In this document: piece after piece, positions 4,901 to 28,946 of the stretch
Position numbering within the stretch: position 1 is the stretch's first letter
How the letters are laid out: every line of letters starts with the position of its first letter
DNA from: Phyllosticta citribraziliensis
Taxonomy: Eukaryota
Assembly: GCF_038025025.1 (NCBI RefSeq)
Contig: NW_027117344.1
Location: 1,364,001-1,428,000 of the forward strand
DNA: 64,000 nucleotides
Direction of reading: 5' to 3'
Notes under the pieces: model-generated
Database searches by the model: none
What the model was told of the DNA's origin: nothing
The model's input: only the letters and a program-made list of their open reading frames with translations
Made by a program: the position numbers and the translations under genes

Positions 4901-7149
4901 TGGTCATTCAGCTGCGGTCGTGGGCACACGGATGGAAAGGTAAAACCTCGTGTTCAGTGTTGGCAATTGTTGCTTACACGCCTTCATGCATGCGACACTG
5001 GTCTGTCCGAAACAGATCTCGGGACGCGATGCTTCCATTGCTTGGAAGACTTCGGGGTCGCCGAGCTCTGATCCCGGTCCGTACTCGGTATAGGCATCCC
5101 CAGGCGGCTTTGGGCATGGTCTTGTACCCAGAGGCAACGATTTCAAGACTGTCCTGAAAGCGGGCCAACGGCCGCTAGGAGGGTTCGGTACGGACTTCTG
5201 TGGTAGAGTGTGGCAGTGTCGCAGGATTTCTCGCCATTCAACACGACGTCCAGGTATCTATTCTGGCTGTGTATTCTCGAATATTTGCGGCGGTCGTTCC
5301 GTGTTTGCGTCCAACCCCGGTGCGCATCCTTGGGTGCGGATCCTTGGGTGCGGAGCAGATCGACAGGTGCTTCCCGGCGCTTTCCTCATCTTTCCGGTTT
5401 CCAAGGAAAGCCTCGCACTTCCGTCAAAGGACACTGCAATGTCGACAATCGAACTGGCGGACCTTTCCATTATTACAGTACACACGTTGATGAGCCCAGA
5501 TCGTGACGGTGAGCCATCCCTCCCCTGTTTATCTATCAGCAAACCAATCTCAGGCTGGAGAAGGTGTACTGTACATGTTCAAAGCCTCCCCGCCGTAACT
5601 CGCCAAACTACTCTGCGCCTTGCTAGCTTCTTACGGTATCTTTAGGGCGTGGCACTGGTTTTGCATGTCATGTTTGCTCCAGAGTCTTCCGCATCTCGCA
5701 GGGACAGTCGTGGCCGCGAGTTTAAGGTTACTACTTCAGTTAATCGCTCGAGTTGAATAGCCGGTGAGGCTGAAAACAAGGCTTGATCTTCCGTCATGGT
5801 ACAAAGCGAGTGTGTTGGGCGTTTCGCGTGGCTGATGAAAGTTAGTTTAGCGACAAGGCTTCTGCCAACGACAGGGATATCCATGAAATAACGGCTCGGT
5901 GGTGCAAGACTTTAGAACTTCGGAAGTCGAGTTGGAAGACCGTTGCCGGTCCGAACGGCTTCGTGGCCTCGAAACAAGGACAATTTGCCGCATCCTGCAA
6001 AGTGTTGGATCACAGGCATGACGAAGGCACTGTTTACCGTGATGCACTGCCTGCTAGCCCGGCGCATTATGATGCCCTTTTCGGCTTCGCCTCCTTTCTA
6101 TCGATTCTTCAGCCGTCCATTTCTTGTTCACTGATCGAAATGTGAGAGTTTCAATCCGGATACGTCCCGTCGAGGCGTTGCAAGGAAAAGCGACAAGGAT
6201 CGCTCGTCTTCTGGCTCGAACAAAGACAGCGATGATGCGTTCTTCAACCAGGTCGCTGTTTTCCAACTCTAACAGGCTTTCGGTCCAGCTGCTCCTGTGG
6301 CCTTGTCCACAACCTAAAATAGAGAGTTGTTTTTCGGGCCCCGTGTTGGTAAGTTGTGGCTGCTCGATAGTGATGGATGTGCAGGTGACGACACTGCAGG
6401 CCCGCGACTTCGCCCGCTATCTACTCCCAGAACAGGGTCGTGTGCGGCCCATCCATGACTTTATTTTTAGGTACAGGGAGAACAGGGCCTTGCTGCAGTC
6501 GAACACCCGTAGAACATCTTAAAGCACGCCATTGCAGCGGTCTTCATGTTTCAGTACGAAGCAAACCGGTCCTCTCAATTCTCGCCAATTATAATCTGCT
6601 CAAATCCCGCGTCTGGGTGAGGGTGGAGTTGAAACGATCAGCAAATTCTTTTGTCGCATTTCTCATTTGCGGTTGCATCAAAGATACCCGGGGCTTTTCT
6701 TAGCAGTGTTAACATGTTGCCAAGTCTCTACGTTGGTGTGAGTATCTCTACAAGATCCAAAGCCAAGTTGATTCAGCTGATGTTCCGAGAACAGGCTCTT
6801 TTAGGTGTAGCAGTACATTATGTAGCTGCCGCAGGATTTAGGACTGTTGGGTCGTCGGGCTGTACTGCGCAAATGGTGTTCCTCCAACCATTCACCGACA
6901 ACGCAATCTTCCTGGACAACTACCACCCAAACTACGGAGGACCTGGTGTCAACCTTCAAACTGGAGCACACGCACCTGACGAATATGTCTATGATGGAAC
7001 CAAGACTTCAGTGTTCAGCACTAAATTCAATTGGCGGACTGCAGCTTTGTAGAAGCTCAAACCCAAATCTAACACCTTTTGCTCTGCCGGAGCATTCTTT
7101 CCCGATGGCACTTTGATGAACCTTGCCGGAGCAGAACCTACTGCCAAAG

Positions 7150-10100
7150 GGCCGCCACTTTTCTGACACCCCTTATACAATTTCTGACACCTCCTCTACA
7201 ATTACTGACACCTCCCCCCCATAATGCCTGTGGCGCCTGCTATAGCACTGATAGCTAGATATTTAAAGTTATAATTACCTTGCTAAATTAGGTAAATTGT
7301 ATATAACTTATAATATTAATTCTATCTATATATCTATCTCTCTATATTACTTACCGCTATAAGGACAGTTTTAGATATAATAATAATAGTATAACTTTCC
7401 TACCTTATAAGGCTAAAGCGCGCGGCCTTACTACTATAGTAGCTACTAAGTAAATAGGTCTCTAGCTTTACTACTCTAAGGTCCCTTATTAGTATCCTCC
7501 TCTTATAATAATAGAATAGGCTTATACTTCTAAATCTCCTTCTAGTACTTCTACTTATACTCTTATACCCTCTTAACTCTATAGTTATAGATATTATAAG
7601 TAAAGTAGTAATACCTTAGTAGTATTATATACTAGCTATATTAGCTACTTTACTCTTCTAGCTACTCTTCTATCTACTCTTCTATCTACTCCTACTCCTC
7701 TATCTACTCCTCTACCTACTCTATTTAAATTAGTAGTTATAGAGAGGTTAGCTATATATACTTCTATTTCTCTACTATAGTAGCTCTAGCTATAGTTTAG
7801 CTATTTATTTAGTATTAAAGGTACTACTCTAGAGTAAAGTTACTATTACTATTAGCTTATATATTCTTATCTACTTATATATTCTTATCTACTTATATAT
7901 TCTTATCTACTTATATATTCTTATCTACTTATATATTACTTTCTTTTTTATCTTCCTTATCTTCCTCCTCTTTCTTATTACTACTAACTTTAACTATATT
8001 CCTAGTAGTATTTATATAGCGCCTCTTTTTTAACTTTTACTTATCTACTATAAGAGAGAGAAGTATATTAAGTAACTCTTAGATATCTAGCTATTTTATA
8101 GCCTTCTTAGTTCTTTTTAATATAACCTTCTTTCTCTTTTAAATAGTACTTTATATAGTATCTTCCCTTTACTCCTCTACTTTAAACTAAGATAGCTATT
8201 AGTATATATTATTTCTTAGCTAACTATATTATCTAATAATATATACTAGGTCCTAGATATAGCTATACTCTCCTAGTAGCTATAGATAGATAGAGTTTAC
8301 TAGAGATAGAGAAGGAGTTATACTACTATATTTAATAAAAGTAGTATATATATACTTATTAGAAGGGTAAAGGTACTAATATAGATTAATATTATAGAGC
8401 CTAACCTGCTATTTATTATTATTACTAAGTACTTAATAGATAGTATAGATATAGATAATACTATATATTCCTATAAAGTTAAGAGAATAGATATAAGTAA
8501 ATTATTAATCTTCTTCTAGTATATACTCCTACTTTATAAGTCTTATTTAAGTAAGGAGTAGATTTAGAGTAAAGTATAAAACTTTCTCCTTAACCTTCTA
8601 GCTAATATTTAGGTCTAACTTAATAGAGTATATAGTATAGCTATACTCCTTACTAATTTATTATATAATCTTTATATACTTATTAGCTATAAATACTATA
8701 ACCTTATCCTTAACCTTTAAGAGATTACTAGTAGATAAAAGAAGATATAATTTAATATAGTAATAGGTACCTTTAAGCTTTAAAGTAATAGTATTTCTAT
8801 AGTATTAGTAGTAGAATATCTAGATAGTAGACTATTTCTCCTTATATAAAAGCTACTCTAAATTAATATAGTTAATAAGGATACTAAACTCTATATTATA
8901 ATTAGCTTAAAACTTAGCCTAGTATATATTAAAATTAGCTTTATTCTTAATATATATAAGATTATAGAAGTAGCTTTAAAACTTCTTTTACTTTACTCTT
9001 AATTTATCTTACTCCTTAGGCTCTTATTAGCTATTAACTTACTAAGCCTACTTTATATAAACTAGGATATTTTTAAGGATATACTATATATAAAGAAGCT
9101 AAGAGATATTAGAGAAGTAGATTCTAAGAGCCTTCCTTAAAGTATCTTCTTTATTAGTAAGAAAGAGGTATACCTTATCTTTAATTTTATACTAATAGAG
9201 TAGATCCTTAAAGAACTAAATTATAGTATTATATATAGGTTCTAATTTATTAGGAAGGAAGTAGATACTAATAGTAAAGACTAAGTTAGTATAAATAATA
9301 CTAATAATTTAGAGGAGTAGTATATTATACTTATTAATTTTATAAGTAGTATCTATAAGGATTACCTCTAGCTAGTACTAGAGAAGAGAGATAGCTATAA
9401 TATATATAAAGAAGAGGATATAAACCTACTATATATTATCTAGTTAGTAGAGAACCTACTACTTATCTTAATTAGCTTTTAACTTATTAAGTAGAGCCTA
9501 TATAGTAGTCCTTCCCTAAAGCTATTTAAGCTTATACTTATACTTCTTAAAGTAGATATTACTAAGCCTAATATATAGATAACTAAGAGAGGGATTATTA
9601 TAGATAAGTAGCTAGATATACTTTATTAGTATACCTTAGTTAAAAAGGCGGCGTATTTATATTATAACCTTAAATAACTACTTCTAGTAGGTAGTATAGG
9701 CGCTTATATTAATAAAGTAGTTATATACTATCTTAATATAGTATATATTACCCTTATTATTAGGTGCATTAACTACTTATATATAGCTAGTAATAGAAAT
9801 AAGGATATCCTATTCCCTAGTAGTATCTTTATTAGTAGTCTAGTTATTATTAGTAATTATAATAAGGTGCTTATAGTAATAGCCTTTAATAGAGGTATAG
9901 TACTTAGTTACTTTAGAATTATACTCTTTATAGTAATTATAGTATATCTAGACCTTTATAATATAATCCTTCTTCTTTAACTTCTTTAAATATAAGATAT
10001 AGTAGGCGTAATTATACTCTTTTAACTAGGTAATTAAGGTATCTTAGGCGGCTTTTTAGGTGGTATATACTGACTTAGGTGGTAGTATAAGTAGGAGAGA

Positions 10101-10665
10101 TTCTAGCGCGCCTTTATTACTATTAGGTATAAAGATATAGTTAAATAAGGCAGCGGCACCTTTAAAGGCTTTACTTATTACTTGCTTTATACCGCGCGTA
10201 TTAGGTGTAGGGAGTGTAAGTAATACCTTACTAATTAGGTCGCTGGCTTTACTAAGAGTAAGGTCTTATTCTAGTAGAGTACTATAGCTGTGGCTGCGGC
10301 TGTAGCTATAGCTATAACTATAGCTGTAACTATAACTATAACTGCTATATTTACTACTACTATTACTCTAGGGTGGCATTATTATAAATAGTTAAGAGGT
10401 AAGAGGTAAGAAGTAAGAGGGAGAGAGGGAGAGAGGGAGAGAAAGAGAGGGAGAGAGTAGTAGTAGTAGTAGTAGTAGTAGTAACTAAGTACTATAGAGG
10501 TAACTAAGCACTGCTAAATTAGGTAGTTAGTAAGCTAATTAGTAGCTGGCGTTATAACTTTAAATATCTAGCTATAGGCGCCGCAAGTAATTATAGGGGG
10601 GAGGTGTTAGTAATTATAGAGGAGGTGTTAGAAATTATATAAGGGGTGTTAGAAAAGTAGCGGCC
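7150..10665 (-). mobile_element. Mutator-like (MULE) DNA transposon, full length (3516 bp), RIP-inactivated
   Basis: TIRs of ~115-125 bp (GGCCGCCACTTTTCTGACACC.. at left, ..GGTGTTAGAAAAGTAGCGGCC at right) with three internal CTGACACC repeats. TSD TGCCAAAG 7142-7149 / TGCTAAAG 10666-10673. Minus-strand MULE motifs readable through RIP: EVILxDxTYKxNKYNxxLL (ends ~9368) and QLLCIWHILKNI-like (~9066-9103). Confidence 0.92.
7856..7937. repeat. 18-bp tandem repeat (CTTATATATTCTTATCTA) x~4.5 inside the MULE
   Basis: Directly visible. The unit length is a multiple of 3, consistent with a former coding repeat in the transposase C-terminal region. Confidence 0.85.
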
Positions 10666-11676
10666 TGCTAAAGATAGGGTTAGTAATGGCTTTAATACTA
10701 TCTATAGGTACGCCCCTAGCCCTTATACTAGAGGTAAATATACTATAGACTAGATTAAAGGTCTATTATACCTCTAAGCTAGGAGATAGTATCTAATAGC
10801 TAAAGCTCTTACTAATAGAGATATCGTGGTTATAGGAGGGTCTAATAGAGGAGGTTTAGTTATAAATAAGGTTAATATAAACGTGCCGACTTATAAATTA
10901 GTAATATAAATAGGCGTGCTACCTCTACTAGTTAAACTACTAATTCTAGAGTTTACTAATAACGCCGATATAAATAAGGCCTATAACTTATACCTAATTT
11001 ATAAGTAAATATTCTTAATTAGATAAGGTATATAACTAACCCTTTTATAGTCGCCCTCCTTTCTAATAAGGTAAATACTAATAAAGTATTTACTCTAGCT
11101 AGTAATATAGCTGTTATCTAGAACTATAAGATGGATAAATTAGTTAAGACGCTTCTAGATACTCCTAAGTAGGCGCGTAACTTTCCTTCTTCTTTAACTA
11201 CGGTCCTACTACCTCTTTTAGCTACAAATAATTTTAAACCTACGATCCTGCTCTATAGTAGCAGCTCTAGTAATAAACCTGTGCCTAAGACCCTAGATGA
11301 CTACTACTATATTAAGCCTTATACTATAAATCTAATATAGGAGCAAGTTAATAATCTCCCTAATAGTAGATAGGTTATAATAGACTCTATCCTTCTTCCT
11401 AATAGCAAGGTGCTTTTTATTAACGGCGCGTATACTAGCTCTATAGGTAGTTTTATAGTAGACGACCTAGTTATAATCCTACTTATCTACGACCTAGCTA
11501 AGCTAGTTAGCTTACGCTTTATACTACTTCCTAAAGTTACAATCCTATAGATGTACCACTTAATCGCGTAGCTGCTGCTAAATAGGGAAGTATTAATCGC
11601 CAGCTCTAACCCCTTAGTTATATATAATAAGGGTGGTAAGGTCTTTAGTAACTGGCCTAACTTTAATAATAATAGA

Positions 11677-11943
11677 TGATAAAGTAAGATAAGAGAACTA
11701 AAGACTCTATTTAAGGCTACTCTAAGAGCTATCTATATACTGCTAAAACTACTAGGGGGAGTAGTAGCTAGTACTAACTACTAATAAGTCCTAAACTTAT
11801 TAAGATATATAAAGCTAATAGATAAGTATATCTTAACTAAAGTAGTAAGTTATTATCTAGATAAGCTATAGTTATCTAGGTAAACTATAGCTAAGATGAC
11901 GCGATAGGAGACTACTTAGTATTATTATATAGGACTACTAATA
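11677..11943 (-). repeat. Copia LTR (3' LTR of the minus-strand element), fully RIP-mutated
   Basis: Same length as 24848-25114 and aligns without gaps; differences seen are C>T and G>A. Confidence 0.93.
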
Positions 11944-14625
11944 CACCCCCTAGGATAAGAAAAGAGATAGTTATAGTAGAGTAGATATATAAGTAGTTAT
12001 ATTAACTAAATAGAAAACTTACTATATTAGTCTATACCTAATAAGGTTATAAAAGCAGTGGTGCTTAACTATTACTAATACTTTAGTAAGCCCGTCTATA
12101 ATTATCTTATTAGTAGAGATATAAGAGATAGTTACAGTTCTATCTATAACTGCCTACTTAATATACTAGTAGTATAGATTAATATGTTTTATAGTAGTAT
12201 TAAACTCTATACTATTAGTAAATTAGACGGCGTTCTTATTATTATTATAGAGCTAGATTAGTTAAGTATTAGGGCCCTTATAACCTATTTTAGTAAGAAC
12301 TTAAGTTATCTAGATAGCTTATTTAATAGTAGGAGTAAGGTTAATAAACTTAGCTTCTATTATAGATATACTAATAAGCTTCTATCTCCTACTCTTTATA
12401 TATAGTAAACCGCCTAAAGCCATGATAATGTAGCCTAATAAGGACTAATAAGTATCTAGATTATTAGTAAAAGCAGCATCTATATGGATTTATAAGCTAA
12501 GAGTGCTATTATTACTAGGGTGTAGAATGATTCTATAATTATATATACCCTATAAGTATTAAAGGACTTAGTAAGTAGTAGTAAGGTGTTTATTTAATAG
12601 GTTATAGGTATATTATAAGAGATAAGTAGTAGGGAAAAGAATAGCTAGGTGGCATCTTATTATATACTATATAAGTAAGCTAACAATCTTACTATAAAGC
12701 TATTAATAGTCTAGGTCGTTCTTGCCATTATACGCGCGTAATTTATAGGAATCTATTAGTATAAGGACGCGCGTAGTATTACTTATACTAAACTATATAA
12801 GAACGTTTTAAATATATCTACCTTAGAATAGTATAATTGTGCTATTTATATATTAATTAATATAAAGACTAAGGAAGTAATATAGTCGGCCTATATCTTT
12901 AAAGTAGATCTTAGTATTAAGTAGTGAGATAATTTTATTAACTTTAGACTTAGTTTTAGTAGTAATATAGAGATTATTAATATAGATAAGAATAAATATA
13001 AGCTTATCCTAGTATCTTATAATATAGGGTTCTAAAGGGAGAGAGCAGAAACCTAGATAGTATAAGAAATTATAGAGGTACTAAAACTAAGTAAGTAGTA
13101 ACTAGTATAAGCTATATAAGGCTCTTTAGAGATGCTAAACTTATTATAGGACCTGGTATCTAGGAGGTATATAGGTATAGACTAGGTCTTTTAGTAGTAT
13201 ATTAAGGAAGGCTATCTTAATATCCCCTTACTTATAAAATAAGTAATAATAGATGTTAATTACTAAAAATAGTATAAAAGTAGGAAATATAATAACTAGT
13301 AATAATACTTTAGATGTATTAAATCCCTTATATTAAAGATTACCTAAAACTATAACGCGGCTCTTATAGATAACCTTCTTACCTAGCTTATTAAGCTTAT
13401 AGACCTAGACCTATTATAGTAGTAGTACCTAAGAGCTATCTAATAGGTAGTTAGTCTCTTTAAAGGTACTAGTATTAGTTAACTCCTATATCTACTTATC
13501 TATAGAGGGTCTCTAATAGATAGATTTTAGCCCTATAAGGGCCTTATACTATAAGTAAGGTAGAACCTTATTAGTAGGGATGGCGTCTTATTAGTAATAA
13601 GTAGTATTTTCTATAGTAGTAAAGGCGCGTATATAGTAAGTAGATAGTTAAGGAGGTTAAGCATTATCTAAACTATATTTCTTATTAAAGAATTATATCT
13701 TAGTATGAATCTACTAAGGGTATTATAATAGTGCTATTAGTAGTAGAGTAGGTATAGGTAATAGAGATAGTAAGGGCGGTAGTAGAGTTAAAGTTAAGTT
13801 AGTAAGTACTAAATTATTAGATCTAGCGCATTTATTAGCTAGAGAGATATTAATCTAATCTATTTTATCTACTAATAGTATAATGTCTATAAACGCGTCC
13901 TCCTTACCTCTACTACTAATATCTATACTACCTATATTAGACCTCTCTACTACTTTAATTGCTTATTCTACTATATTATAGATTGCTTTAGTATTGCCTT
14001 TAAGAGTGTCTTAAACTGTTTTTAATATAAGATGTATAATAAGTGTCTTATTATTACTATTCTTAACTTTTCTATCTTCTATATTATTTATAGTAGCTAT
14101 TAAGTCTAGCTACTAAGGAGGTCTAAAATATATGTCCTAAGTATAGATAACCTAGTTTATTTAAGGGAGATATACCTAGAAGATATACTTATAGTTATAG
14201 CTAATAAACTATTCTTTCTCTACTCTTATATTAAATTTAGCGCTCTTAAGATGCTTCTTAGCTAGGATATAAGTATATATAGTAATACTAAAGACTAGTA
14301 CTAGTAACTAGACGTCCTTATACCTACTAATAGTATTATTAAAAATATTAACTAGTATCTTGCTATTAAGTGCGCGAGTGGGAAGATAGTTAAGAAGATA
14401 TACTATATATTAATAGGCTTCTATCTATAATAATTAAGGCGTATTTAACATGATACTTATAGAGTAGGCCATACTAGTAATAAGGTATATAGATAACTTA
14501 CTAATACTATTTTACTTAGGTAAGTATAGTGCTATCTTTTTAACCTTAATACCCTCTATCTTTACCTATACTAGTAGCTTTTAGCTGCTAAACTCTATGC
14601 TATTATCTATTTAGAGGGCTTAGAT

Positions 14626-15048
14626 TATTACGATAGGCGTATACGCGCCTATATAAGTACTAGGGCCAGTATAGATAAACCTAGTATTGCGCGGTTATAA
14701 GAAGCACAAGCCTCACCTTAGGTAGCAGCCTGCTATAGCTTAGGCTAAAACCTGCAGGCTGGTACTAGCTACTACAGCCTAGTACTAGCCACTATAGCCC
14801 TAGGTAGATACTATATAACAGCCTATTAATACCTTACCTTTATAACTTACCTAATAATAACTAAGGACCCTTATATAAAGGATAAGAGATAGAATAGTAT
14901 AAAGGAAGGACTAGGAAATATATAGGTAGTAAGTATCTTTTATATTTTATTCTTTTAACTTATTAGATTTAATTAAGATATATATATATTCTCTAGTAGT
15001 TTACCTTTAGCTCTTACCTATATAATAAGAAATCTATAAGTTATAATA
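14626..15048 (+). repeat. Gypsy 5' LTR
   Basis: Direct repeat of 22447-22869, same length; TATAAA at 14898-14903. Confidence 0.93.
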
Positions 15049-18000
15049 GATATAAAAGATCATTCTAAGTTTTAGCTCTATCCTACTTCTTTACCTATAA
15101 AGGTGTTATAATATTTGACCTAAGTAATATTATATATAGCTATAGTCTTATATAAGACTACTTGTTACTTTTCCCTAGTAAACCTAAGTCATCTTTATTA
15201 GGCGCATTGGTATTATCTAAGGACTAAGGAGTATTAAGTATATATTAACTATAGAAGTCTTTAGTTAAGGCTATAGGGTAGTATATAAATATTTAGGAGG
15301 TATCCTATCTATAACCTGCTTAAGGGACATTCTAAGTAGAAGACTATAAAGATAGTATAGCTAAGAATAAAGCTAACACATCTAGTACTACTAAAGGTGT
15401 TAGTACTAGTTAATTAACCTAATAAGATTCGCGTAAAGGAACTAAAGATTCGCGCAATACTAGATACTTATTAAATAATAATAAGAGAGGACCTACCCCT
15501 ATTCTCCTATATAATTTCTACTTAGTCCTAGTAGTAGAGGTAAAAGAATGTACCTAAGACCTAGGGTTAACTTATACAGTTTAAGCTCTAGTTATAGAGG
15601 CGTTTATAAAGGTACTATACTTAGATATTAATTAATTTAAATCTAAGATTGCATCCTTAAACAAGTCTTAAGTATAGTAGTAACTAAACCGCGCATAAAG
15701 GCAAAACTAGGCTCTTAAGTAAATACTCTTAAACTATACTAATAGACTTAGGGAAGTTCTAAGGGAAGGATATATTAGGCCCTCTTTATTAGCTTAGCAC
15801 CTAAGACCTATTACCCTCTCTTAAGATCCTTCTACTAGTAGAGTTATAAGGACTCTTAGACCTCCTCCTAACTATATAAGGGAAACTACTACTAAAACCT
15901 CTACTTTATCTTTAAGTAGTAAGAAATACTAAAGTAGTAAGGTTCCTAATCCTCCTCTTCTTACTAATAGAGAAGACCCCTTATATAAATACTAGACCCT
16001 CCTTATATAAAATAAAATTAAACAAAACCACAATTACTTTACTAAAGATATAGTAGAGGAGACTAAATAGAATATTACAGGTTATATTATTTCCTATATT
16101 AGTAGAGAAGTCTTATATTACCTAACTCCTTTTCTTACTTCTTATATAAAGGCTAATAAAGTTACTCTAGATAAGGATATCTTTAAATTCCTAGATAACC
16201 TCCTCTAGAGTCTATATAAATATAAGGATATAAAGAAGTAGTTATACTCTCTTATATACTGTATTCCTATAGACCTTTAGAAGTTTTAATTAAACTTTAT
16301 ATAATTAGCCTTAGATATAGATCTTCCCTAGGAATAGTAAAAAGAGGACTTTTATAATATAATAGATCCTCTCCTTTAAACCTATATAGTTACTATAGAG
16401 TAAGATAGGGATATTAACTTTTATAAGTACCTCTAATAAGCCTACCCTATTGCTTAAAGTCTTAGTAACTACTATTCTAACTATAGAAAACCAATACTCA
16501 CGTCGCGTAAGGAATAAGTAAAGAAGAGATAATAAGAATAAGTAAAGATAACTACCTTAGGCGGTATAAGTACTTTATCTTCTAGTCATGCCTAGGCGCG
16601 ATCTATATCTAGGGCTCCCTTATATAATATAACCTATAAAGGCAAAGTAGAAGTCTATATAGAGAGTAGACTATATAATTACTATAGCTAGTTTAGCTAT
16701 TTATAGAGATAATGCCCACAACCTAAGATAAAGGCAATAGAGTTAGTTAAAGAAGAAAGTACTAAAGATGTCTATATAAATAAAGGAGATTAGTCTTTAT
16801 TAGAAAATAATAAGGCCTAGGTAAAGTCTCCTACCTTAGGTCTAAACTTAGAGTAATATATATTAAAGGTTCTTATATAAATCTTAGTTACTTTATTAGA
16901 GGTGTACCCTTTACTATATAAACCTTAATTATATCTAATAGCCGCGCCTTAGAAATTTATACCCTAGCTAATACTAGTACTAGTAGTATAAGTTTTATTC
17001 ACCCTAAGCTACTACTAACTCTCCAGTCTATAGGTGCTATAAAAAAGAGAATAATAGGTAAAGGGCTTAATATTACTAGGTTTAACTAATATATAAATAA
17101 GAAAGTTAATTTTTACTTTTATCTTTAACTCTACTTCTAGGATTAAATAGTTTCTACTTATACTTTTATTTATAATATTGGCCATAATAACATAATTCTT
17201 AGGCGATAGTTTTTTAACTAGTACGATGTTCTTCTAGACTATAAATAATATAAACTAGTCTAGAGATAGCTACTAGTTAACTAATCCTTTTAGTATCTTT
17301 TACACCTACTAAAAGTCTCTATGTAAAGTAATAAACCACAGAAAGAACATTAAGTAGATATAGACTATAGAGATAAAAACTTTAATAAACGCCTTCTTCC
17401 CTTAGTATAGGTTATTAAGGGAATTAAATTTTAAACTTAAGATGCTTTTAAGCTTTCTATCTATAAAATATAAGTTATGCTAATAGAGATCTATACTATT
17501 AACCTTATATAAGTTTAAGTAGCTCTTAAAGATAAAGAAACTGAGGAATTATTAGCTTCTAAGCTACTAGCTACTTATAAGGAATTTTAAGATGTGTTTT
17601 CTAAAATAGAGTCTAATAAGCTACTACTATATCGCGTAGGGGTTAATTATAAAATATCTCTTATATATAATAGTCTACTAGAGCTTCTACCTAGTCCTCT
17701 CTATAGAATGTCTCTAGAGCAGCTTAAGGCTATAAAAGAGTATATTATTAAGAACCTTTAGAAAGGCTTTATTACTAAGAGCTTTACTACCTATACTTCT
17801 CCTATTCTTATAGTAAAAAAGCCTAGTAGGGGATGGAGATTTTACGTAGACTACTAATAGCTTAATAAATAAACTGCTAAGGATTTACACCCCCTTCCTC
17901 TTATTATAGAGTTGCTTTAGCGTGTTAGAAAGGGCAAAATTTATACTAAGCTTGATATTTAATAAGCTTTCTACTATATTTATCTTACTAAGGATTCTAA

Positions 18001-20659
18001 AGATAAGACTACCTTCTATATAAGATATAGCTTATTTAAATACTATATCTTGCTATTTAGATTAAGTAATAGACCTATAGCCTTTTAATATTTTATTAAC
18101 CAGGTTCTCTTTAAGTATTTAGATAATTTTATTATAGCTTTTATAAATAATATGCTTATTATCTCTAAAGACCCTACAGAGCACAAGGAATAAGTAAAAA
18201 AAGTACTAGTAAGACTATAAAAAGCAGGACTATAGGTAGATTTAAAGAAGAGTAAGTTTTTAGTTACTTATATAAAGTTCCTTAGATATATTGTTTCTAT
18301 AGAAGGCATTTAGATAGACCTAGATAAGGTAGAACCTATATAAAACTAGCTAATACCTAAAACCCTTAAAGCTCTTTAATCCTTCCTAGGTTTCTATAAT
18401 TTCTACTAATGATTTCTCCCTAACTATAGATAAATTAGCTGGCTATTAGAGAAACTATACTCTAAGGCAAAATAGTAACTACTAGGACCCCTAGAAGAGG
18501 AGGCAATTTAATAACTTAAGAAGCTAATATATAGTGATATACTTCTAGCTAACTATGACCCTACTCTTAATACTTATATAGAGACTAATATAAGTAATAG
18601 AGTTACTATAGGCATTTTAATGCAGCTCTAATAACCTTTATATAATTAGAAACTAGTAGCGTTCTACTCTAAGGTAATAGCTGATGCAGAACTTTATTAT
18701 AGAATATCTAATAAAGAACTGCTAGCTATTAAGAATAGACTAGAAGAATAGAGACTAATACTTATTAGCCTTAAAAAGCCTTTTCTTATAATAATAGACT
18801 ATTAGGCATTAGAGTACTACTCTACTAAACGACAACTTAATTAATAATAAGCTAGATGGTCTAAGTTTTTTATAGAGTTCCACATATAATTCTCCTATTA
18901 GCTAGGAAAGGAAAATATCATTACTAATTACCTTACTTAAAAATAAGAAGACCTAAAGACTTAAAAAGAAAAAGTAAAGGCTATATAAGAGATATGCCTT
19001 ATCCTACTAGAGACTATTATCCCTCTTTCTATTTTAGAATAAGAACTTCCTTCTCTAGTATTATTTTTAGATAAACTTCTCTATATAAACTAAGAAGATT
19101 CTAAATTAGAACTCTAGAGATAGAAGGCCCTCTTAAAAGACCTTAAATAAAGAAATAGTTAGGAACTAAAGGATGGTCTTTTATTATAATATAGTACCCT
19201 CTTTATACTAGATTGTGATAACCTCTATATAAGAATGCTTAATACTTTATATACTACCTATATAACTGCCTATCCTAGTATTATAAAGATGCGAAAACTC
19301 CTTAAGTAATATTACTACTAGCTAGCTATAAATTACATAATTAATATTTATAGGTAAGGATGCTATATTTGCTGCTAAATAAAGGAGTTTTATAATAAAG
19401 ACCTAGGCCTTCTATAACTACTAGAGATTCCTACTCGACCCTAGTAATACTTAGCTATAGATTTTAAAGAGATGCCTAAGGACTAAAAAGGCTATAATAT
19501 AATCCTAGTTATTATAGACTAGTTAAGTGGAAGAACCTTTAGCTTGCCTTATATAAAGAAGATTAATACTAAAGGAGTCTCTAGGCTTTTTTATAAATAT
19601 ATCTACTATATTTATAGAAACCCTAAGTCTATCCTATCTAACTAAGGCCCTTAGTTCATCTTAGCGTTTATAAATAAACTATATAAGCTAACTAGTATAG
19701 AGTAGCATTTTAACTTATCCTACTACTCTTAAACTAATAGTATTATAGAGATTGTTAATTAGCATCTTATATAAAGATTAAGACCTTTTATTAATTACTT
19801 TTAGAATAATTAGTCTAATCTTCTACTATTAATAGACCTTATACAAGTAACACTTCCCTATAAAGCTACTAGACTTTTACCTTTTAAGATTAAGTTAGGA
19901 TATTCCCCTTAAATATACTATAACTAGTAATAAAGAATAGAGACCCCCTAGTAACTAGAAAAGATAGCTCGTATAGTAGTATAAACACTATAAAAGAGAA
20001 GATAAGAAGCTTTTAAATTTATAAAGAATCTTATTCTTAAATCCTAAGAGTATATATACTAATAAGCTAATAAATACCGTCATGTGCTAGACTTTATAGT
20101 TAGAGATTATATCTATATTAAGAAAACTAGATGGTCTACTAATTAGCTAAACCTTAAATTAGACTTCCCTAATACTAGACCTTTTAAGATTATAGGAATA
20201 GAAGGACCCTCCTATATCCTTAATCTTCCCTTATATATAAAGATAGTTAACCTTTTCTATACTAATAGGCTATATAAGGCTAAAATGGAACAGCTTCCTA
20301 GTTAGGAATATACTAAACCTAAACCTAAGATTATTTAAGACGAGCCTAAGTGGGAAGTAGACTATATTTAAGCTAGTTAAGTCTTATATAGGAAGCTTTA
20401 ATACTAAGTTAAATAGACTAGATATAACTAAGATAACTAGTAGTATAACGTAAGTTCTTTTAGTAGTATACTATAGAAAATTAAAGAATTCCACTCATTA
20501 TACCCTATTATAGCAGGACTACTAAAAAATCTAGAAAAATAGAAGGCTGCCTTCCTCTAAGAAGAACTATAGATTAAAATAGAAAGTAATAATAAAACAA
20601 GTTACTTAGGCCTATAGTAAATATTATAAAGATATAGAAAGTAGACTGATTAGTTTACT

Positions 20660-21400
20660 ATCTACCCTTATATAAATACTATTAATCTTAACTTCTACTC
20701 TCTAGTCTCTCCTTTTTACTACTTATTTCCTACTATCCTCTTCTTTAATTTCTACCCTTTACTTCTTTCCTTTTCCCTTCTTCTTATTATAATAGTTATT
20801 ATATAAGACTATCTCTTCTAGATCCTCTAGCTTATTAGGCAGGATGTCCTACTTAGCTAAAGCCTAATTAGTTTAATCCTCTAACCTGGCTTAGTAGTAC
20901 AAGTTCTAGAACTCCTCTATATAAATTTTATCTTTATACCTCTTATAATAAGCAGGCGGCTTGGCACCCTTTAAGTTACTTATAGTATAGTTAAGGTTGC
21001 CTATACCCTAAAGGTAGTTGGCACAGCAGCCCTATAAGAAACCAGGTAGGTAGTAATAACTAATAAACGCGCGAGTATTAGTATTATCGCAACACTTAGT
21101 ATAGCTAATAGAGTTATTAATTCTAGTATACTAGATAAGAAAAGCATCGCATAAGCTGGCTTAAGTTTTAACTAATAAGTAGTTAAATTGCTAAGTAGAA
21201 ACTATAATATATAAGTAAGGCATATTATTACCTAAGGCCAAGATATACTTAGCGCGCTCTTATACTTTAGAACTACTAAGGTATACCTATATAGTTAGTT
21301 AGATAAGAATCCCTTATATTAGTAAGATAAACTTACTTATACGACACTCTCTATATTCTTATAAGGGATATAAAGCGTTAACTTAAAGTCCTACTTAATA
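20660..21400 (-). pseudogene. Relic antisense accessory ORF in the Gypsy 3' region with a Cys-rich DUF3716-like motif (boundaries approximate)
   Basis: Minus strand 21160-21005 reads SLCDAFLI*YTRINNSISYTKCCDNTNTRAFISYYYLPGFL*GCCANYL*G. Reversing RIP gives AxLIQxxG..CxKC..F..C..PG..GCCANCxW. A K/E/R-rich minus-strand tract follows at ~20700-20790. Confidence 0.55.
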
Positions 21401-22446
21401 GGCACCTTATTAGAGCTAACTAGCAATGCCACAACGCGAATCTCACTATTACTACTATTATATAAAGTAGCAGGTAGTAAGTACTTAGCTGCTAGAACCT
21501 AATAAGCTATAGGATTATAATAATAGTATATATAAGTAGGCTCTTTACCTTCTTCCTCTAAAATAGGCTGTGCGATAGCAAACTAGCAGCAATATAGCAT
21601 AATAGGCTAGTTAGTAGTAGGCTATACAGCTATAGATAATAAACCTCGCGCGATAACTAATAATACTAATTAAGTAGAACCTAATACTATAGTATACTAT
21701 AGGTAAAGTAACAAGCCTATAGCTATTCCTAGCTAAATAAGTAAAGCCTAGCCTAACTAAGTCTTTATATAAGTATCCTCCTCTATAATTATATCAGTCA
21801 GCAAGACAGGACAATAAAGTAGTAAAACCTAGATATATAATACTACTTAACAGCCTAGATAACAATTAGTAATAGTTAGAGATAGAATTAAAGTTTACTT
21901 ACCTTAGGACTCTATATAATAGTCCTTATAGATACTACTAGCTAAAACAGCTCTCTAAGTAAGTAGCAACTATAACAGATCGCGAACGACGCCATATAAT
22001 AATAACTTAATACTATAACTCTTATATAATAGTAATAAGTCCTAATAGACTAGACTATAATGAGTAGTAGATATATTAAGTATATAGCAGCCAGGAATAT
22101 CTACTTTACTATTAGTAGGGTATAAATCATTTAAATTATTAGAACCTTTATATATAATAGTTAGTTTACTAGATTATAGCTAAATTAGACTAGGGCAATA
22201 ATATACTTTAATAGAGAGCTTTAGATATAGCTAAATAAGATAGCAACCTTCTATAGGTCGCACAGTAAAAGAGATAGTAATAGAAAGAGATAGTATAGTA
22301 GTAGACCTAGACTAATAATTATACTTTATAACTATATAGAACGCTTAAATTACTAAATTACTACTATTATATATTATAAGTCTGCACCTATATAAGCGCC
22401 TATAGCTACTAATTCCTATAATTTTAGCTTCTCTTTAGGGGGGGCA

Positions 22447-22869
22447 TGTTATAATAGGTATATATATACCTATATAAGTACTAGGGCCAGTATAGATAAA
22501 CCTAGCATTATATAGTTATAAGAAGTACAAGCCTCACCTTAGGCAGCAGCCTGCTATAGCTTAGGCTAAAACCTACAGGCTGGCACTAGCTACTATAGCC
22601 TAGCACTAGCTACTATAGCCCTAGGTAGATACTATATAACAGCCTATTAACACCTTACCTTTATAACTTACCTAATAATAACTAAGGACCCTTATATAAA
22701 GGATAAGAGGTAGAATAGTATAAAGGAAGGACTAGGAAATATATAGATAGTAAGTATCTTTTATATTTTATTCTTTTAACTTATTAGATTTAATTAAGAT
22801 ATATATATATTCTCTAGCAGTTTACCTTTAGCCCTTACCTACGTAATAAGAAATCTACAAGTTGTGACA
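22447..22869 (+). repeat. Gypsy 3' LTR
   Basis: TG...CA termini, preceded by the polypurine tract and followed by TSD TAGAT. Confidence 0.93.
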
Positions 22870-24847
22870 TAGATCTTATATTAGAACTAGGTTTTAGTCT
22901 ATTTACTAAAGTTTTAAATACTATTAAAGGCGTCGCCCTTAGTCTTTATAACTAATAAGTATTATAGATATAAGTAGTCGTCTATAAATACCACCCCCTA
23001 ATAGCAGCTATTATGGCTGACTATAAGTGGTCTAAATATATTAATATAGACGCGTCTAAAGGGCGCGTCTGCTTAAGGTATTAGTTTATATAATACTATC
23101 TAGTAGGACTTAGCTATATAGCAGGATTTATAATAGAAGTCTTAGTTACTAGTAATAATAAGTTATCCCTAGTACTAGAGCTTATTAAGTATACTAGTAT
23201 AGACATACCCTAATTACTAGTACCACGTCTTATATATCGCTATAGGAGGAGTTACTATAGTAAATACTTATACTATATAATTATTATTAATAACTATTAG
23301 AATGTTCACCCCTAAACTATTAGAGTAAGCTATAATAGCTGTTCTATAGTTTTATATTTATAATATAGAGGTAAGCTAATCTAGGTATAGTCCCTTCTAC
23401 TTAAGTTTTAAAGCTAAGATAAGACTAACTATTAGTACTAGAATATATAGAACACCCTCTATTATAAGAGTATTAACTATACTATTTATAGGATAGTAGA
23501 GTATGGCGTTGCTATAGCTAATAGCTATTACTATACCTAAACTGTATACCTAGACTAGCTGCGCGAACTATAAGTAGTTTATTAGCTTAGTTAAATTTAG
23601 TATATAGTAGGTATTAGCCCTAGTATTAACAATCTATTCATCCTTTATTAAAGCTAGATATAGGTATAGGGTAGTAAAGTAGTTCGCGCCTTATACTAGA
23701 GGGTTAGTTATTAATATTATTATTACTATTACTACTATTAGTAGTTTAGAGACTTAATTATCTAGTATATAGAATACCCCTAATACTAGCTTCTAATAGG
23801 TGGGATAGTATTTAAGGTAAAGATAGCTATACTTAGCCTTAATATACCCCTTCTTTCTATAGTAATTATAGGTAGCACAGTTAGACTTAGACTACTTAGT
23901 AGACTGCTAACTAGTATAAATAGTAAGAGCTATAGTACTATTCTTACTAGTATATTTAATCTTATTAGTTATAGTATAGAAGAGATCCTTAAACTTAGGC
24001 ATCTCCTTCTTATTATACTAATTTATATACTAAGTTATATACTAGATAGGAATATCATCTTATAAGTTTTCTAAAAGTAGAATATAGAGAATCTAGTCCT
24101 TAACTTACTATTAGATATAGCTAATATAGGCTTACCTTTATTTATATAGGGCATTATAGAATTCCTTTACTATTATAAAATTACTATATTAATAGAAGAT
24201 AAAGTCCTTAATAATATTAGCCTTAGAGAGGATACCCTTAGTATTATATATATTATAAAGCTTCTACTATATAGAGTAAGCTAAACTAGTATACCCCTAT
24301 AGTACTATTATAATAGGAAGTATAATAATTATTATAAACTAGTAGATAATATATATATCCTTCTTATAATTAGTAGCATTTTTTAGCTTATCCTTAAGTA
24401 GATAGGCATAATAGAATAGACTAAGCCTTATCTTAACTATTATCTTAAAGGTTACCTAGTTAGTAGGGCCTTTAAGTAGCTAGATATTCTTTAAAGGGAT
24501 ACTAAACTTACTATTATTTATAGTTAGGTCTACCTCTTCTTTAGCCTTAGCCTACTTAGCTAGTATAGAAGATAAGGCAGCAGTAAAGCCTAAACTACTA
24601 GATAATAAGGGAGGAAGGGAAGGTAAAGTTATAGTAAAGATAATAACTATTAGTATATTACTTAGAGTTATAGAGATAGATAATACTAATAAATTTACTA
24701 AAGAGTAGGAATTATATAAGATAATAAGGGATAAAATAATAAAATAATAAAATAACTATTAGTAATAATTATATAGATAGTATTATAGTATAACACTAAA
24801 ATAAGCTAGATAAGCAATTTATATATGTAATATAAGGGCTTATAACC

Positions 24848-25114
24848 TAATAAAGTAAGATAAGAGAACTAAAGACTCTATTTAAGGCTACTCTAAGAGC
24901 TATCTATATACTGCTAAAACTACCAGGGGGAGTAGTAGCCGGTACCAACTACTAATAAGTCCTAAACTCATTAAGACGCGCAAAGCCAACAGACAAGCAC
25001 ATCTCAACTAAAGCAGTAAGTCATCATCCAGACAAGCTACAGTCATCCAGGCAAACTACAGCTGAGACGACGCGATGGGAGACTGCTTGGTGTTGTTACA
25101 CAGGACCACCAACA
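24848..25114 (-). repeat. Copia LTR (5' LTR); outer part largely escaped RIP
   Basis: Ends ..GGACCACCAACA and retains CpA/CpG sites that are TpA in the partner LTR. Confidence 0.93.
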
Positions 25115-27173
25115 ACGGACATCGCTCGTTTCTTCAGCAGCAGCAGCGCAAGGACTCGTCGTTCCCGACCGAGTACCGCGTCGAGATCTTCACTCCCGAT
25201 TATGCCGAAAATCCGAACAGGCCCAAGGTCACTCGCGCTCCGGATGCGATTGCGTACGGCAAGACGTTCGATGTGGCGACGAATGCGCAGGGTCAGGACG
25301 TCGTGGTCAGATTGTTTTCGCCGGGCTTCCACACGCACGCGATTTCGATGCAGCAGAGGATGGTGGAGCTCGAGGTCAAGAAGGGCGCGGGACAGGGCGC
25401 ATATACCGTCACTGCGCCGCCGAGGTCCAGTGTCATGCAGGCCGGAGTTCACCTCCTGTTTATCGTCGTAGGTGGTGTTCCATCTGAGGGTGTCTGGGTT
25501 AAGCTTGCGTGATTGGGCATCGTATCCGGTTTCCCCTTGTTTTTCTTGCTTGCATAAGAATCAGTCAGCCGGTGCATGCATGCATGGCATTGCGATAGAT
25601 GGAGTAATTCAAAGGTGTAGACAGATAAATACCTCCAATGTTCAGATTTCGAGTCGAACTGTTCTTTCGCTGCACTGCAAATCATGCAAGTCATTTTGAC
25701 TGCAACTACGGCCCAAAATTCGGCATTCCACTCACATCCGCTCGCGAACCTTTTGCGGCAACTTCATCAACTCCCACAAACTCCAACCCTGTTGCCGCAA
25801 AATCCTTCCGTTTCTTCTCCCGTCCAAACCACTGACGCAGCCTCCCACTCACTCGCGCATGCCGCGTCAACGACAACGCCGACGACGTCGAGGCGCGGAT
25901 AAGCATGTCGATAAAGAACGCAAACACACTCGCGTCGCCCGAAACTCTAAAGCTACTTTTCCTCGTGGGCGCGTTCGGCAGCGCCTGGGTACAGATTTGC
26001 CGAGCTAAAAGGGCAAACAATTGGGCCAAGCTCGTTTTTTCAAAGTTTATGTCGCGCTTTGCCGCTTGTCCGCTCGACCGCGGTTTAAGGATCCGGGTGC
26101 TGGGGCGTGTTTGCGGAGGATATTACTGCTTTAAAATTTACTGTTTTTTGTTAAAACAATACTCGTAGACAGGTAAGAGACGGAAAATTGAACTGGAATG
26201 GGAAATTTTGGAACTGAAAATGGCCACTCCAGCTAATAAGTCATGCTCCACCAACAGCCAAGGCAAAGGCAGTAAGGGCGGCCCGAGACTCGTCACCCAA
26301 ATACGAAGGCGAAAAGTCCTGACCTGTTTTTGTCTGCTCTTTGTCTACTTGTCTACAGAGTCGATAAAAAGGATGTACGCAAGAGGTTCCGGCGGACCGA
26401 GACGGAGACGGGTCACACAAAAAGGTATTGCGTTTAAGAAGCGAGGACCGAGTGGGTGGCTTGAACGACTTCCACCCCTCTTGCGGGCATGAACCGGCTG
26501 TGGATATCCGACAGCTAAGCTAAGCGGGAGGGCAAAGACGAGGGCAGTGGCGTGACGCCAATAGCGTTGCTTGGTTGTGAAGAACTGGCTGTCGAGAAGG
26601 TTCGTGGCTTGCTTGATTGGATGTCTGCGGACGTCTTTCTTCTATAAATTGTCAATTAGCTCGCTTTTTGATTCAGGGCGTCTCTATGAAGCCAACGTTC
26701 GAATGCGCGTTGGTCTGTCCGAGCTCTGAGTCAGGCTTTTTGCAAACGCAGCGGTAATGGGAAGGATAACAAGCAGTTGGGTGTAGGGAGGCCAAGACAG
26801 AGACGTAAGACGACATGGATCTGGATGGTGCAGGAAACAGCGGTATTAGTATGCCCAGGAAGCAAATGGTGAGGCCGAGTCGACCCCACCATCTCTTGGA
26901 ATAATTGCTTTGGTTGCCTTCGTACTCACTCTTGCGGCTGCCCTGATGCTTAGTTTTGTACCGTCACAATCGGGAATCAAAAGAAGGGGCTTGGTTTGGC
27001 CCATACGAGTGTGAGTTCTTTGACAAGACTCTTGCGTGAGACGCGCATTCAAATTTTGAGCGTTGTAGCTAACGAATACTCGGATATTTTACAGATTCGC
27101 AGTGGACCTGTCAAACATTTGAACTTCCGAACCACAGTTTGTACGGGCAAGGCATGAAGAGAGTCAGGAGCGC

Positions 27174-28253: not shown

Positions 28254-28946
28254 GGTGAGAATGTTGGCTTGGAAGAGATATCGAAGTCTGGCTGTGTGCG
28301 AAGCTTGTTGAGGAGATCTGGAGGATTGAGGTTGTACTTCTGAATGCCGACCCGCCAACCCATCTATATACTCCCATGAGGGTCCCCACCTTCAGATCGC
28401 CCCGCCTCGCCATGACCTTCCACAATCGCGTCACCAACCAGCTGCCGGGCACAACATCCCAACTAACCCAAGTTAGTGACTGCGCATTTGCAATCAATCC
28501 CAGACTCAACCGCTCATTATTCATCAAGCGCGCGAGCGGACGTGTACAAGTGCCGATGGTGAGGGTAAGCTTATTGCCTGTTTGGGATAGCGCGGATGTG
28601 CGGCGGGGATGTTGCTAAGCAGAGCGGAATCACAGCGCTGAGTTGCTAAGGCGGAGCGGAGGTGGGAACGCCGCAAGTCCGACACTTTCCAGCCACTTCT
28701 GCCGCATACGAGATGATGCAAACTGACGAGAGACGATTAGTTATTTCAGAGGAGCTTTCCGCGCACATTTTCGTCCGATCGCGGGTTTGACCAACGTCGT
28801 TCAGGCAGCAGGCTTATCTCGACACAACATCACGCCAAGAACACGTGGGTCTGTCAAAAAAATTCAATCATTTAGCGCTCACTGAATGCCCGTAGATACA
28901 AACAGACGGTCCCAATACTGTTCCGCTATTTTGAAAATTGGCCGAC

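Follow-up and report, generated by a model that had tools for sequence, protein, structure and literature searches.

The elements and the gene pieces at the locus

The window analysed here is a 64-kb stretch of the genome of Phyllosticta citribraziliensis, a citrus endophyte. It contains an AT-rich block with a GC content of 0.23-0.36, flanked by DNA of 0.49-0.57, while the rest of the 64-kb window ranges from 0.49 to 0.60. The block is made up of exactly three elements, a Mutator-like (MULE) DNA transposon, a Ty1/Copia retrotransposon and a Ty3/Gypsy retrotransposon nested in the latter. No other AT-rich block and no further copies of the three elements were found within the window. Three pieces of a single oxidase gene are distributed around and between these elements, as listed below.

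6714-7149, plus strand: oxidase piece 1, with exon 1 (6714-6737), intron 1 (6738-6794) and the start of exon 2 (6795-7149)
7142-7149 and 10666-10673, no strand: MULE target-site duplication, left copy TGCCAAAG, right copy TGCTAAAG, differing by one C>T change
7150-10665, minus strand: MULE transposon of 3516 bp with TIRs and a PF10551 domain, degraded by repeat-induced point mutation (RIP)
10674-11676, plus strand: oxidase piece 2, codons 126-444, with intron 2 at 11001-11050; GC 0.33; located by tblastn
11677-25114, minus strand: Ty1/Copia LTR retrotransposon, 5189 bp of its own sequence with the Gypsy element nested inside; LTRs, duplication, RVT_2
14626-22869, plus strand: Ty3/Gypsy LTR retrotransposon of 8244 bp, inside Copia; LTRs, duplication, RVT_1 and RNase H
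25075-25512, plus strand: ORF of 145 aa, from an ATG in the Copia LTR into piece 3; recorded as predicted protein P0145
25120-25512, plus strand: oxidase piece 3, codons 445-574 plus TGA, an intact GC-rich ORF

A tblastn search with P0001, an intact orthologue of 574 aa from Phyllosticta, returned four co-linear matches in the window. Positions 6714-7145 encode residues 1-125, interrupted by the in-frame intron of 57 nt (6738-6794); residues 125-235 lie at 10667-10999, 235-443 at 11047-11673 and 442-574 at 25111-25509. All further matches of P0001 within the window had E>2. The overlaps of one to two residues between pieces correspond to the duplicated target sites, and the pieces are otherwise without overlap. 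A preliminary description of this DNA had proposed one AA5 gene in three pieces (6714-7149, 10674-11676 and 25120-25512). This proposal is borne out, since the pieces, which were aligned to orthologues separately and not concatenated, are co-linear on proteins of 574 aa and overlap only at the target-site duplications. The two junctions predicted at the same time were also recovered: deletion of 7150-10673 yields EPTAK/D, and deletion of 11677-25119 joins NFNNN(R<-G)/HRSF, corresponding to the predicted WPNFNNNG/HRSF. From the coordinates the exons add up to 24+355+327+626+390 = 1722 nt, or 574 codons, the length of the orthologue. Every one of the 574 codons has its position, and the 1722 coding nucleotides are free of indels.

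The MULE is inserted in exon 2 of the oxidase gene, at codon 126. Its TIRs (7150-7225 and 10590-10665) are 76 nt long and 91 % complementary, and one of six frames, on the minus strand, matches the MULE transposase family PF10551 with 32.5 bits (cut-off 27.6). MULE target-site duplications are usually 8-11 bp long. Long TIRs, an 8-bp duplication and a transposase domain are thus all present.

The Copia element interrupts the last oxidase exon at codon 444. Its LTRs (11677-11943 and 24848-25114) are 267 bp each, with ends TG/TA...CA. The flanking target sites, ATAGA (11672-11676) and ACGGA (25115-25119), are identical when RIP-type changes are allowed for. RVT_2 (PF07727) was detected on the minus strand with 39.5 bits (cut-off 31.6), while the six plus-strand translations of both arms matched no Pfam family. 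An integrase family was found in none of the 12 translations at E 0.01; the sequence is heavily degraded by RIP. The Gypsy LTRs (14626-15048 and 22447-22869) are 423 bp each with TG..CA ends; their bounds were taken from strict alignment and contig evidence, as a transition-tolerant alignment over-extended them. The Gypsy translation carries RVT_1 (residues 962-1120, 60.1 bits) and RT_RNaseH (residues 1210-1317, 51.7 bits) on the plus strand. In each of the three elements the score of the diagnostic domain exceeds the curated Pfam cut-off. Pfam gave no match to integrase or chromodomain families in this translation at E<=0.01. By eye, integrase-like and chromodomain-like stretches can be seen in the downstream part.

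The preliminary description regarded the Gypsy as younger than the Copia. Indeed, the Gypsy is nested in the Copia with a perfect TAGAT duplication (14621-14625 and 22870-22874), and it is missing from a contig that represents another copy of the Copia: in record 1 of contig X1, sequence resembling 14591-14620 is joined straight to 22870. The MULE may have inserted before or after the Copia, in agreement with that description, which considered their order impossible to determine.

An AT-rich repetitive block is hard to assemble, and the 19-kb arrangement might in principle be an artefact of collapsing or wrongly joining repeats within a gene that is in fact intact. A search of sequencing runs for words of this sequence returned six runs from three studies, none with half of the words. 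Among the contigs of runs X1, X2, X5 and X6 over 22800-28500, none covers 25283-25664 and none of those listed bridges 25114/25115; the MULE junctions lie outside 22800-28500. The oxidase junctions therefore depend on one assembly and on P0145, the exact LTR-exon chimeric product, which is on record on two contigs that may come from the same strain. Several observations nevertheless make an artefact extremely improbable. The three elements have matched terminal repeats, duplications of the length proper to their superfamilies and only RIP-type differences, and removal of an element together with one duplication rejoins the coding frame without a base too many or too few. Furthermore, the inferred ends of the Copia and the Gypsy coincide exactly with points at which independent contigs end or join; one of these, from another Copia copy, diverges from the window sequence exactly behind 25114. 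The record of the LTR-exon junction product on two contigs, and a published count of one fewer AA5_1 gene (see below), also fit a real arrangement.

An AA5_1-type oxidase and the state of its reading frame

The intact orthologues carry the Pfam domains PF07250 and PF09118; P0001 matches Glyoxal_oxid_N, the N-terminal domain that forms the seven-bladed propeller, with 144.8 bits against a cut-off of 37.5. Taken alone, pieces 1 and 2 of the window copy match this profile below the cut-off (positions 19-87 with 22.7 bits and positions 180-231 with 29.5 bits, respectively), but the matches are in the right order and the whole domain is covered by the co-linear tblastn alignment. The translation of piece 2a matched no Pfam family and the two partial matches are below the cut-off; the assignment of piece 2 is based on the tblastn alignment. 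Piece 3 matches the C-terminal GO-like E-set domain PF09118 (DUF1929) with 94.6 bits (cut-off 25).

P0001 aligns with 9N3U, reported as the first fungal AA5_1 crystal structure (PMC13094651), with an E-value of 5.8e-46. Five active-site residues, C104, Y166, Y404, H405 and H517, were placed in P0001 by alignment to 9N3U and to GlxA (4UNM), together with the roles of Cys, Tyr, Tyr-His and His reported for GLOX (PMC11611005). The orthologues resemble the fungal AA5_1 enzymes Phanerochaete chrysosporium GLOX and Fusarium graminearum FgrAldOx (PDB 9N3U) in their propeller and GO-like E-set and in the positions of Cys, Tyr, Tyr-His and His. They differ from FgrAldOx in lacking WSC domains (Pfam scan of P0001), and a short hydrophobic stretch forms the N-terminus of the 574-aa protein. 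Judged by their sequences, the intact Phyllosticta orthologues are of the glyoxal-oxidase type, with a predicted aldehyde-oxidising and H2O2-producing activity. Among the papers searched on Phyllosticta and glyoxal oxidase, none characterises one of these orthologues.

In the window copy the codons of all five active-site residues (the cross-linked Cys-Tyr pair, the axial Tyr and two His) are kept. Piece 1, which extends to the first base of codon 126, includes the cofactor Cys codon (FCSAG), and piece 3 carries the last copper-ligand His (FHTH). The preliminary description had stated that the cofactor and ligand motifs FC, RWY, MYH and TH could all be located. All four are found, in part damaged: FC, MYH and TH are intact, but MYH is preceded by a stop and RWY now reads R-stop-Y. 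Unlike in working fungal AA5_1 enzymes, the codon of the second-sphere Trp of RWY has thus become a stop, in a copy that lies in three pieces and holds 11 in-frame stops in total. One of these is a TAG in piece 1 (7050-7052, from the translation); the other ten lie in the 1 kb of piece 2, which is heavily mutated by RIP. In addition, the splice donor of intron 2 at 11001 now reads AT and is lost. Neither these stops nor the altered donor had been noted in the preliminary description. A working AA5_1 gene has an uninterrupted coding sequence, and with two insertions, 11 stops and a mutated donor the copy in the window belongs to the family only as a pseudogene. The earlier characterisation of the gene as fully reconstructable holds for the coordinates, as 574 codons are accounted for without indels, but not for the open frame. 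Excision of the elements would not restore the gene, because of the 11 stops, the change of about one third of the piece 2 codons (105-106 of 311 aligned) and the lost donor.

RIP across the elements and the trapped gene piece

The mutations in piece 2 bear the signature of RIP. Its TpA/ApT index is 2.02 and its (CpA+TpG)/(ApC+GpT) index 0.22, compared to 0.86 and 1.24 for piece 1, and 0.44 and 1.04 for piece 3. In a comparison of piece 2 with P0134, an orthologue from Phyllosticta citrichinensis, 99 of the 105 amino acid mismatches are explicable by C>T or G>A changes in the window copy, while changes in the opposite direction, used as a control, account for two of the 105. For the five mismatches between piece 3 and P0134, the corresponding figures are none in the RIP direction and two in the opposite one. 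Each of the ten stops in piece 2 corresponds to a W, Q or R codon in the orthologue. The LTR pairs show the same type of change: their 72 differences (39 in the 267 nt of Copia, 33 in the 423 nt of Gypsy) are all transitions, with no transversions. Since these differences are all of the RIP type, LTR divergence was rejected as a clock. Sequencing runs X1, X2 and X6 contain further copies of Copia and Gypsy in which the patterns of transitions differ.

The extent of the mutated tract can be read from the elements themselves. In 100-bp windows the RIP signal is absent at 7150-7249 and at 25000-25114, and full from 10300 to 12100. In 7 of 7 TIR mismatches and 38 of the 39 Copia LTR differences, C or G is found on the outer copy and T or A on the inner copy. 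As only the inner copy is mutated in each pair of duplicated target sites, RIP at both sites postdates the insertions. The TAG in piece 1 is located 99 bp outside the MULE. RIP-type transitions can explain it, but it lies about 200 bp beyond the continuous RIP tract and may therefore have another origin.

The course of events can be outlined as follows. The MULE inserted into exon 2 at codon 126 and the Copia into the last exon at codon 444, with the Gypsy entering the Copia later. RIP, acting in sexual cycles, would then have turned C:G into T:A along one continuous tract, probably reaching from about 100 bp inside the outer end of the MULE to about 165 bp inside the outer LTR of the Copia. 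This tract would have taken in the single-copy gene piece of 1 kb between the elements, a "RIP leakage" into the linker. The gene is left with 11 nonsense codons and without one of its splice donors, and about 105 codons of the middle piece are altered, with the outer pieces essentially untouched. P. citribraziliensis has been reported to be heterothallic (PMC9073689).

RIP leakage near repeats has been described (PMC3105345; PMC9453070), and a heterochromatin-related pathway has been reported to mutate mainly the linker between repeats (bioRxiv 10.1101/115501). As in the AT-isochores of Leptosphaeria maculans, in Cladosporium fulvum and in the DIM-5/DIM-2 linker pathway of Neurospora, a single-copy stretch of 1 kb between repeats is densely mutated from C:G to T:A at this locus while its outer flanks are spared. 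In contrast to these precedents, the flanking repeats are unrelated elements and not copies of each other, and the trapped DNA is a CAZyme exon instead of an effector gene; the present case is described from its sequence. The hallmarks seen here, a duplication of 8 bp with TIRs of 76 nt for the MULE and duplications of 5 bp with TG..CA LTRs for the retrotransposons, are likewise canonical for nested insertions of LTR retrotransposons and MULEs in fungal genes, but here two independent insertions have occurred 1 kb apart in one gene of 1.9 kb. The type of event, transposon insertion followed by RIP leakage, is well known and the locus reveals no new mechanism. By titles and the beginnings of abstracts, the literature on Phyllosticta and repeat-induced point mutation or glyoxal oxidase contains nothing on this locus.

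It may tentatively be speculated that the locus is a natural record of RIP spreading of the heterochromatin type (DIM-5/DIM-2-like) in a Dothideomycete. For such a heterochromatin-spreading reading, the single-copy linker is crossed at full density, and the spared outer TIR arm and outer LTR end serve as internal controls.

Timing of the inactivation and fate of the pieces

Intact orthologues of 574 aa, P0134 and P0137, are present in the sister species P. citrichinensis; their accession numbers are adjacent to that of the orthologue of the neighbouring NmrA-like gene. From these adjacent numbers, the intact gene of P. citrichinensis appears to be at the same place, beside the NmrA-like gene. 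Exon 2 in piece 1 shares 108 of 118 codons with P. citrichinensis (91.5 %). Piece 3 shares 125 of 130 residues with this species (96.2 %) and 110 of 130 with P0001. The functional neighbour protein is 92.0 % identical between the two species. All insertions as well as the RIP would thus postdate the split from P. citrichinensis. The inactivation had been called recent on account of the open 3' ORF. This view is strengthened: the intact sister orthologue, the conservation of pieces 1 and 3 at the level of the neighbour and the LTR pairs with no transversions are better evidence than the ORF. An intact allele may segregate in other isolates, as the preliminary description suggested.

Conceivably the gene was already a pseudogene before the insertions, owing, for instance, to the TAG at 7050-7052, with the transposons then piling into dead DNA. 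The position of this TAG, outside both the MULE and the RIP tract, and the somewhat lower conservation of piece 1 (91.5 %) relative to piece 3 (96.2 %) would agree with such a history. It is nonetheless improbable, given the absence of indels from the coding sequence and the conservation of pieces 1 and 3, which equals that of the functional neighbour. Moreover, the TAG itself is explicable by RIP-type transitions, and at both target sites the outer copy of the duplication still agrees with the reading of the orthologue. The conclusion that is held with great confidence is that the locus is the dead copy of one secreted AA5_1-type copper-radical (glyoxal/aldehyde) oxidase gene, split by transposons and mutated by RIP after the separation from the sister species.

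Piece 3 deserves separate consideration, as it might survive as a new small gene of 145 aa that starts in the LTR, encodes a GO-like E-set on its own and is kept open by selection. The ORF, which begins at the ATG of the LTR (25075), stays open up to the stop codon of the old gene and has been entered as a predicted protein, and the piece contains no stop and is 96.2 % identical to the sister orthologue. However, the Copia lies on the minus strand, so that the promoter in its LTR is directed away from piece 3, and an open GC-rich frame of 130 codons is what is expected of a young pseudogene fragment outside the RIP tract. Such a domain would furthermore lack the propeller, which holds four of the five active-site residues. 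A new gene is accordingly very unlikely. The annotated 145-aa "E-set" protein is best regarded as a fragment with an LTR-derived start and not as a real small gene, a remnant of the dead oxidase copy.

In the CAZyme table in the supplement of PMC9073689, with columns identified by counting from the header, P. citribraziliensis has one AA5_1 enzyme and seven other Phyllosticta genomes have two. The locus explains at base resolution why this endophyte is listed with one AA5_1 compared to two in seven relatives, which include pathogens and endophytes. The loss does not track lifestyle, since the gene is retained in P. capitalensis, likewise an endophyte, as well as in the sister species. The locus also offers a tidy teaching case of RIP leakage, in which the LTR and TIR pairs, mutated on the inner and not on the outer copy, are built-in controls. 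If heterochromatin-type spreading of RIP were indeed at work, two unrelated repeats 1 kb apart would cooperate to silence and mutate the DNA between them, and this could be a general route of single-gene loss in otherwise gene-dense regions.

The oxidase gene and its pieces

A tblastn search of the whole window with P0001, the intact 574-aa P. citricarpa orthologue, yielded four co-linear matches and, beyond these, none with E < 2. They are listed here with the elements that interrupt them.

Matches to P0001 and inserted elements (window coordinates)
6714-7145, + strand: P0001 residues 1-125 (tblastn)
7150-10665, - strand: MULE (TIRs, target-site duplication, PF10551)
10667-10999, + strand: P0001 residues 125-235 (tblastn)
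11047-11673, + strand: P0001 residues 235-443 (tblastn)
11677-25114, - strand: Copia (LTRs, target-site duplication, RVT_2)
14626-22869, + strand: Gypsy, nested in the Copia (LTRs, target-site duplication, RVT_1, RT_RNaseH)
25111-25509, + strand: P0001 residues 442-574 (tblastn)

The 1- and 2-residue overlaps between the matches are the duplicated target sites. A preliminary description had proposed one gene in three pieces (piece 1, 6714-7149; piece 2, 10674-11676; piece 3, 25120-25512), joined at EPTAK/D and WPNFNNNG/HRSF. Ranges, junctions and the assignment to a single gene are all borne out by these co-linear matches, which overlap in target-site duplications only. The introns lie at 6738-6794 and 11001-11050, and the exons calculated from the coordinates (24+355+327+626+390) amount to 1722 nt or 574 codons, exactly the orthologue length, and thus zero bases were lost from or gained in the oxidase coding sequence.

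Piece 3 (25120-25509, 130 aa) is 85% identical to a 574-aa protein of P. citricarpa and 80% identical to one of P. capitalensis. Each is named 'glyoxal oxidase N-terminus-domain-containing protein' and carries PF07250 and PF09118. The codons for the five active-site residues (Cys, Tyr, Tyr-His, His), whose roles in AA5_1 enzymes are described in PMC11611005, are still legible in the window. They correspond to C104, Y166, Y404, H405 and H517 of P0001, as placed by alignment to the fungal AA5_1 crystal structure 9N3U (FgrAldOx) and to 4UNM (GlxA). The original observation was accurate, and its main reading, a transposon-split AA5_1 oxidase gene, is right.

Existing annotation treats the oxidase 3' fragment as a gene: it is on record as the 145-aa predicted protein P0145 (window 25075-25512; PF09118 only). 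Residues 1-15 of P0145 stem from the Copia LTR and the remainder from piece 3; the entry is probably an artefact of annotating the broken gene. P0145 is recorded on 2 contigs, so at least two records show the LTR/exon junction, and these may belong to one strain. In the sequencing-run contigs compared with window 22800-28500, positions 25283-25664 were uncovered and the junction 25114/25115 was bridged by none among the matches listed. An intact allele may still segregate, as the preliminary description suggested.

The inserted elements

The MULE has TIRs of 76 nt (91% complementary) and an 8-bp target-site duplication, with copies TGCCAAAG and TGCTAAAG. PF10551 was found in one of six stop-masked frames, on the - strand (32.5 bits; cut-off 27.6). 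The element also contains an 18-bp tandem repeat at 7826-7951 (a 54-nt unit in six overlapping copies). The Copia has LTRs of 267 bp and the target-site duplication ATAGA / ACGGA. RVT_2 was detected on its - strand (39.5 bits; cut-off 31.6), and no Pfam family was found in 6 translations of its + strand. A contig of run X2 tracks the Copia LTR to 25114 and then diverges into unlike sequence, which independently marks the Copia terminus.

The Gypsy, with LTRs of 423 bp and a perfect TAGAT target-site duplication, carries RVT_1 (60.1 bits) and RT_RNaseH (51.7 bits) on the + strand. It is the youngest element because it is nested. That it is younger than the Copia, as originally proposed, also agrees with a contig of run X1 representing a Copia copy without Gypsy, in which sequence like 14591-14620 is directly joined to 22870. 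Either the MULE or the Copia may have inserted first, in agreement with the same description. Further Copia and Gypsy copies with differing C>T/G>A patterns match 22800-25114 in runs X1, X2 and X6 (organisms A and B), including one Copia without Gypsy and one Copia at a different locus; these families are therefore multi-copy and common to at least two labelled organisms.

Repeat-induced point mutation and damage to the gene

The window has one AT-rich block (GC 0.23-0.36, ~7250 to ~24950), with GC 0.49-0.60 on both sides; the insertion surroundings are ordinary gene-dense DNA. All differences within LTR pairs are transitions (39/39 in the Copia, 33/33 in the Gypsy), a pattern that, with the dinucleotide indices, marks repeat-induced point mutation (RIP). 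Paired TIRs and LTRs served as internal controls, comparing the outer copy (towards the flank of piece 1 or piece 3) with the inner one (facing piece 2). At all 7 MULE TIR mismatches, in an alignment read by eye, the outer arm has C/G and the inner arm T/A; 38 of the 39 Copia LTR differences likewise have T/A in the inner and C/G in the outer LTR. The outer TIR arm (7150-7249) and the outer ~165 bp of the Copia right LTR (24950-25114) are nearly free of RIP, and their inner partners (10590-10665 and 11677-11943) are heavily mutated. In both target-site duplications only the inner copy is mutated, so RIP at those sites came after the insertions.

Scanned in 100-bp windows, the RIP signal is absent from 7150-7249 and 25000-25114 and full from 10300 to 12100. 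The mutated tract behaves as a single domain, not as one footprint per element. This continuity and the paired-repeat controls suggest that single-copy piece 2, lying between MULE and Copia, acquired its mutations as linker DNA flanked by two repeated elements. Such mutation is known as RIP leakage in Leptosphaeria maculans and Cladosporium fulvum (PMC3105345, PMC9453070). A heterochromatin-related pathway is reported to mutate chiefly linker DNA between repeats (bioRxiv 10.1101/115501), and it may have acted here.

The ORF of piece 3 is intact (PF09118, 94.6 bits), and so is piece 1 except for one TAG at 7050-7052, where all orthologues compared have Arg. Their TpA/ApT and (CpA+TpG)/(ApC+GpT) indices are 0.86/1.24 (piece 1) and 0.44/1.04 (piece 3), against 2.02 and 0.22 in piece 2 (GC 0.33). 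Piece 2 contains 10 in-frame stops, every one at a W, Q or R codon of the orthologue and one of them replacing the Trp codon of the RWY motif, and its intron-2 donor is now AT. Compared with the P. citrichinensis protein, 105-106 of 311 aligned codons are changed. C>T/G>A in the window copy alone explains 99 of the 105 mismatches to P0134, an intact P. citrichinensis orthologue, versus 2 of 105 in the opposite-direction control; for piece 3 the same test gave 0/5 and 2/5, respectively. The gene had been called fully reconstructable, which holds for its map and coordinates. It does not hold for function: stops, changed codons and the AT donor remain after element removal, which would therefore not yield a working oxidase gene.

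Age and meaning of the loss

The neighbour gene (27174-28016, - strand) codes for an NmrA-like / isoflavone-reductase-family protein, 100% identical to a P. citribraziliensis 'isoflavone reductase family protein' (92% query coverage) and 73% and 69% identical to its P. citricarpa and P. capitalensis counterparts. By eye only, long ORFs at 540-1535 (-) and 28868-30961 (-) resemble a GH16/KRE6-type glucanase and malate synthase. Contigs of run X5, a surface metagenome, show 0-1 differences to the unique flank 25776-26876, which indicates that this fungus or a very close relative is present in that sample.

P. citribraziliensis is a citrus endophyte with P. citrichinaensis as closest relative (PMC9073689). 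The 90% cluster of P0001 contains two intact 574-aa P. citrichinensis proteins, and the adjacent accession numbers of the P. citrichinensis oxidase and NmrA-like orthologue suggest the same gene order as in the window. With the functional neighbour protein as divergence yardstick (277/301 identical to P. citrichinensis, 92.0%), piece 3 (125/130, 96.2%) and exon 2 of piece 1 (108/118, 91.5%) show no additional decay. A CAZyme table in the PMC9073689 supplement, its values assigned by counting columns from the header, gives one AA5_1 gene for P. citribraziliensis and two each for P. capitalensis, P. citriasiana, P. paracitricarpa, P. citrichinaensis (both strains) and P. citricarpa (both strains). 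Together, the intact sister-species orthologues, the identities and the AA5_1 counts date the loss to after the divergence of the two sister species, and uphold the earlier view that inactivation was recent.

The locus is a young AA5_1 oxidase pseudogene, split by transposons and mutated by RIP. Gene loss of this kind is an ordinary event in Dothideomycete genomes, and loss of the oxidase has no evident tie to lifestyle. The locus is an unusually clean case, and it agrees with the published difference in AA5_1 gene count.
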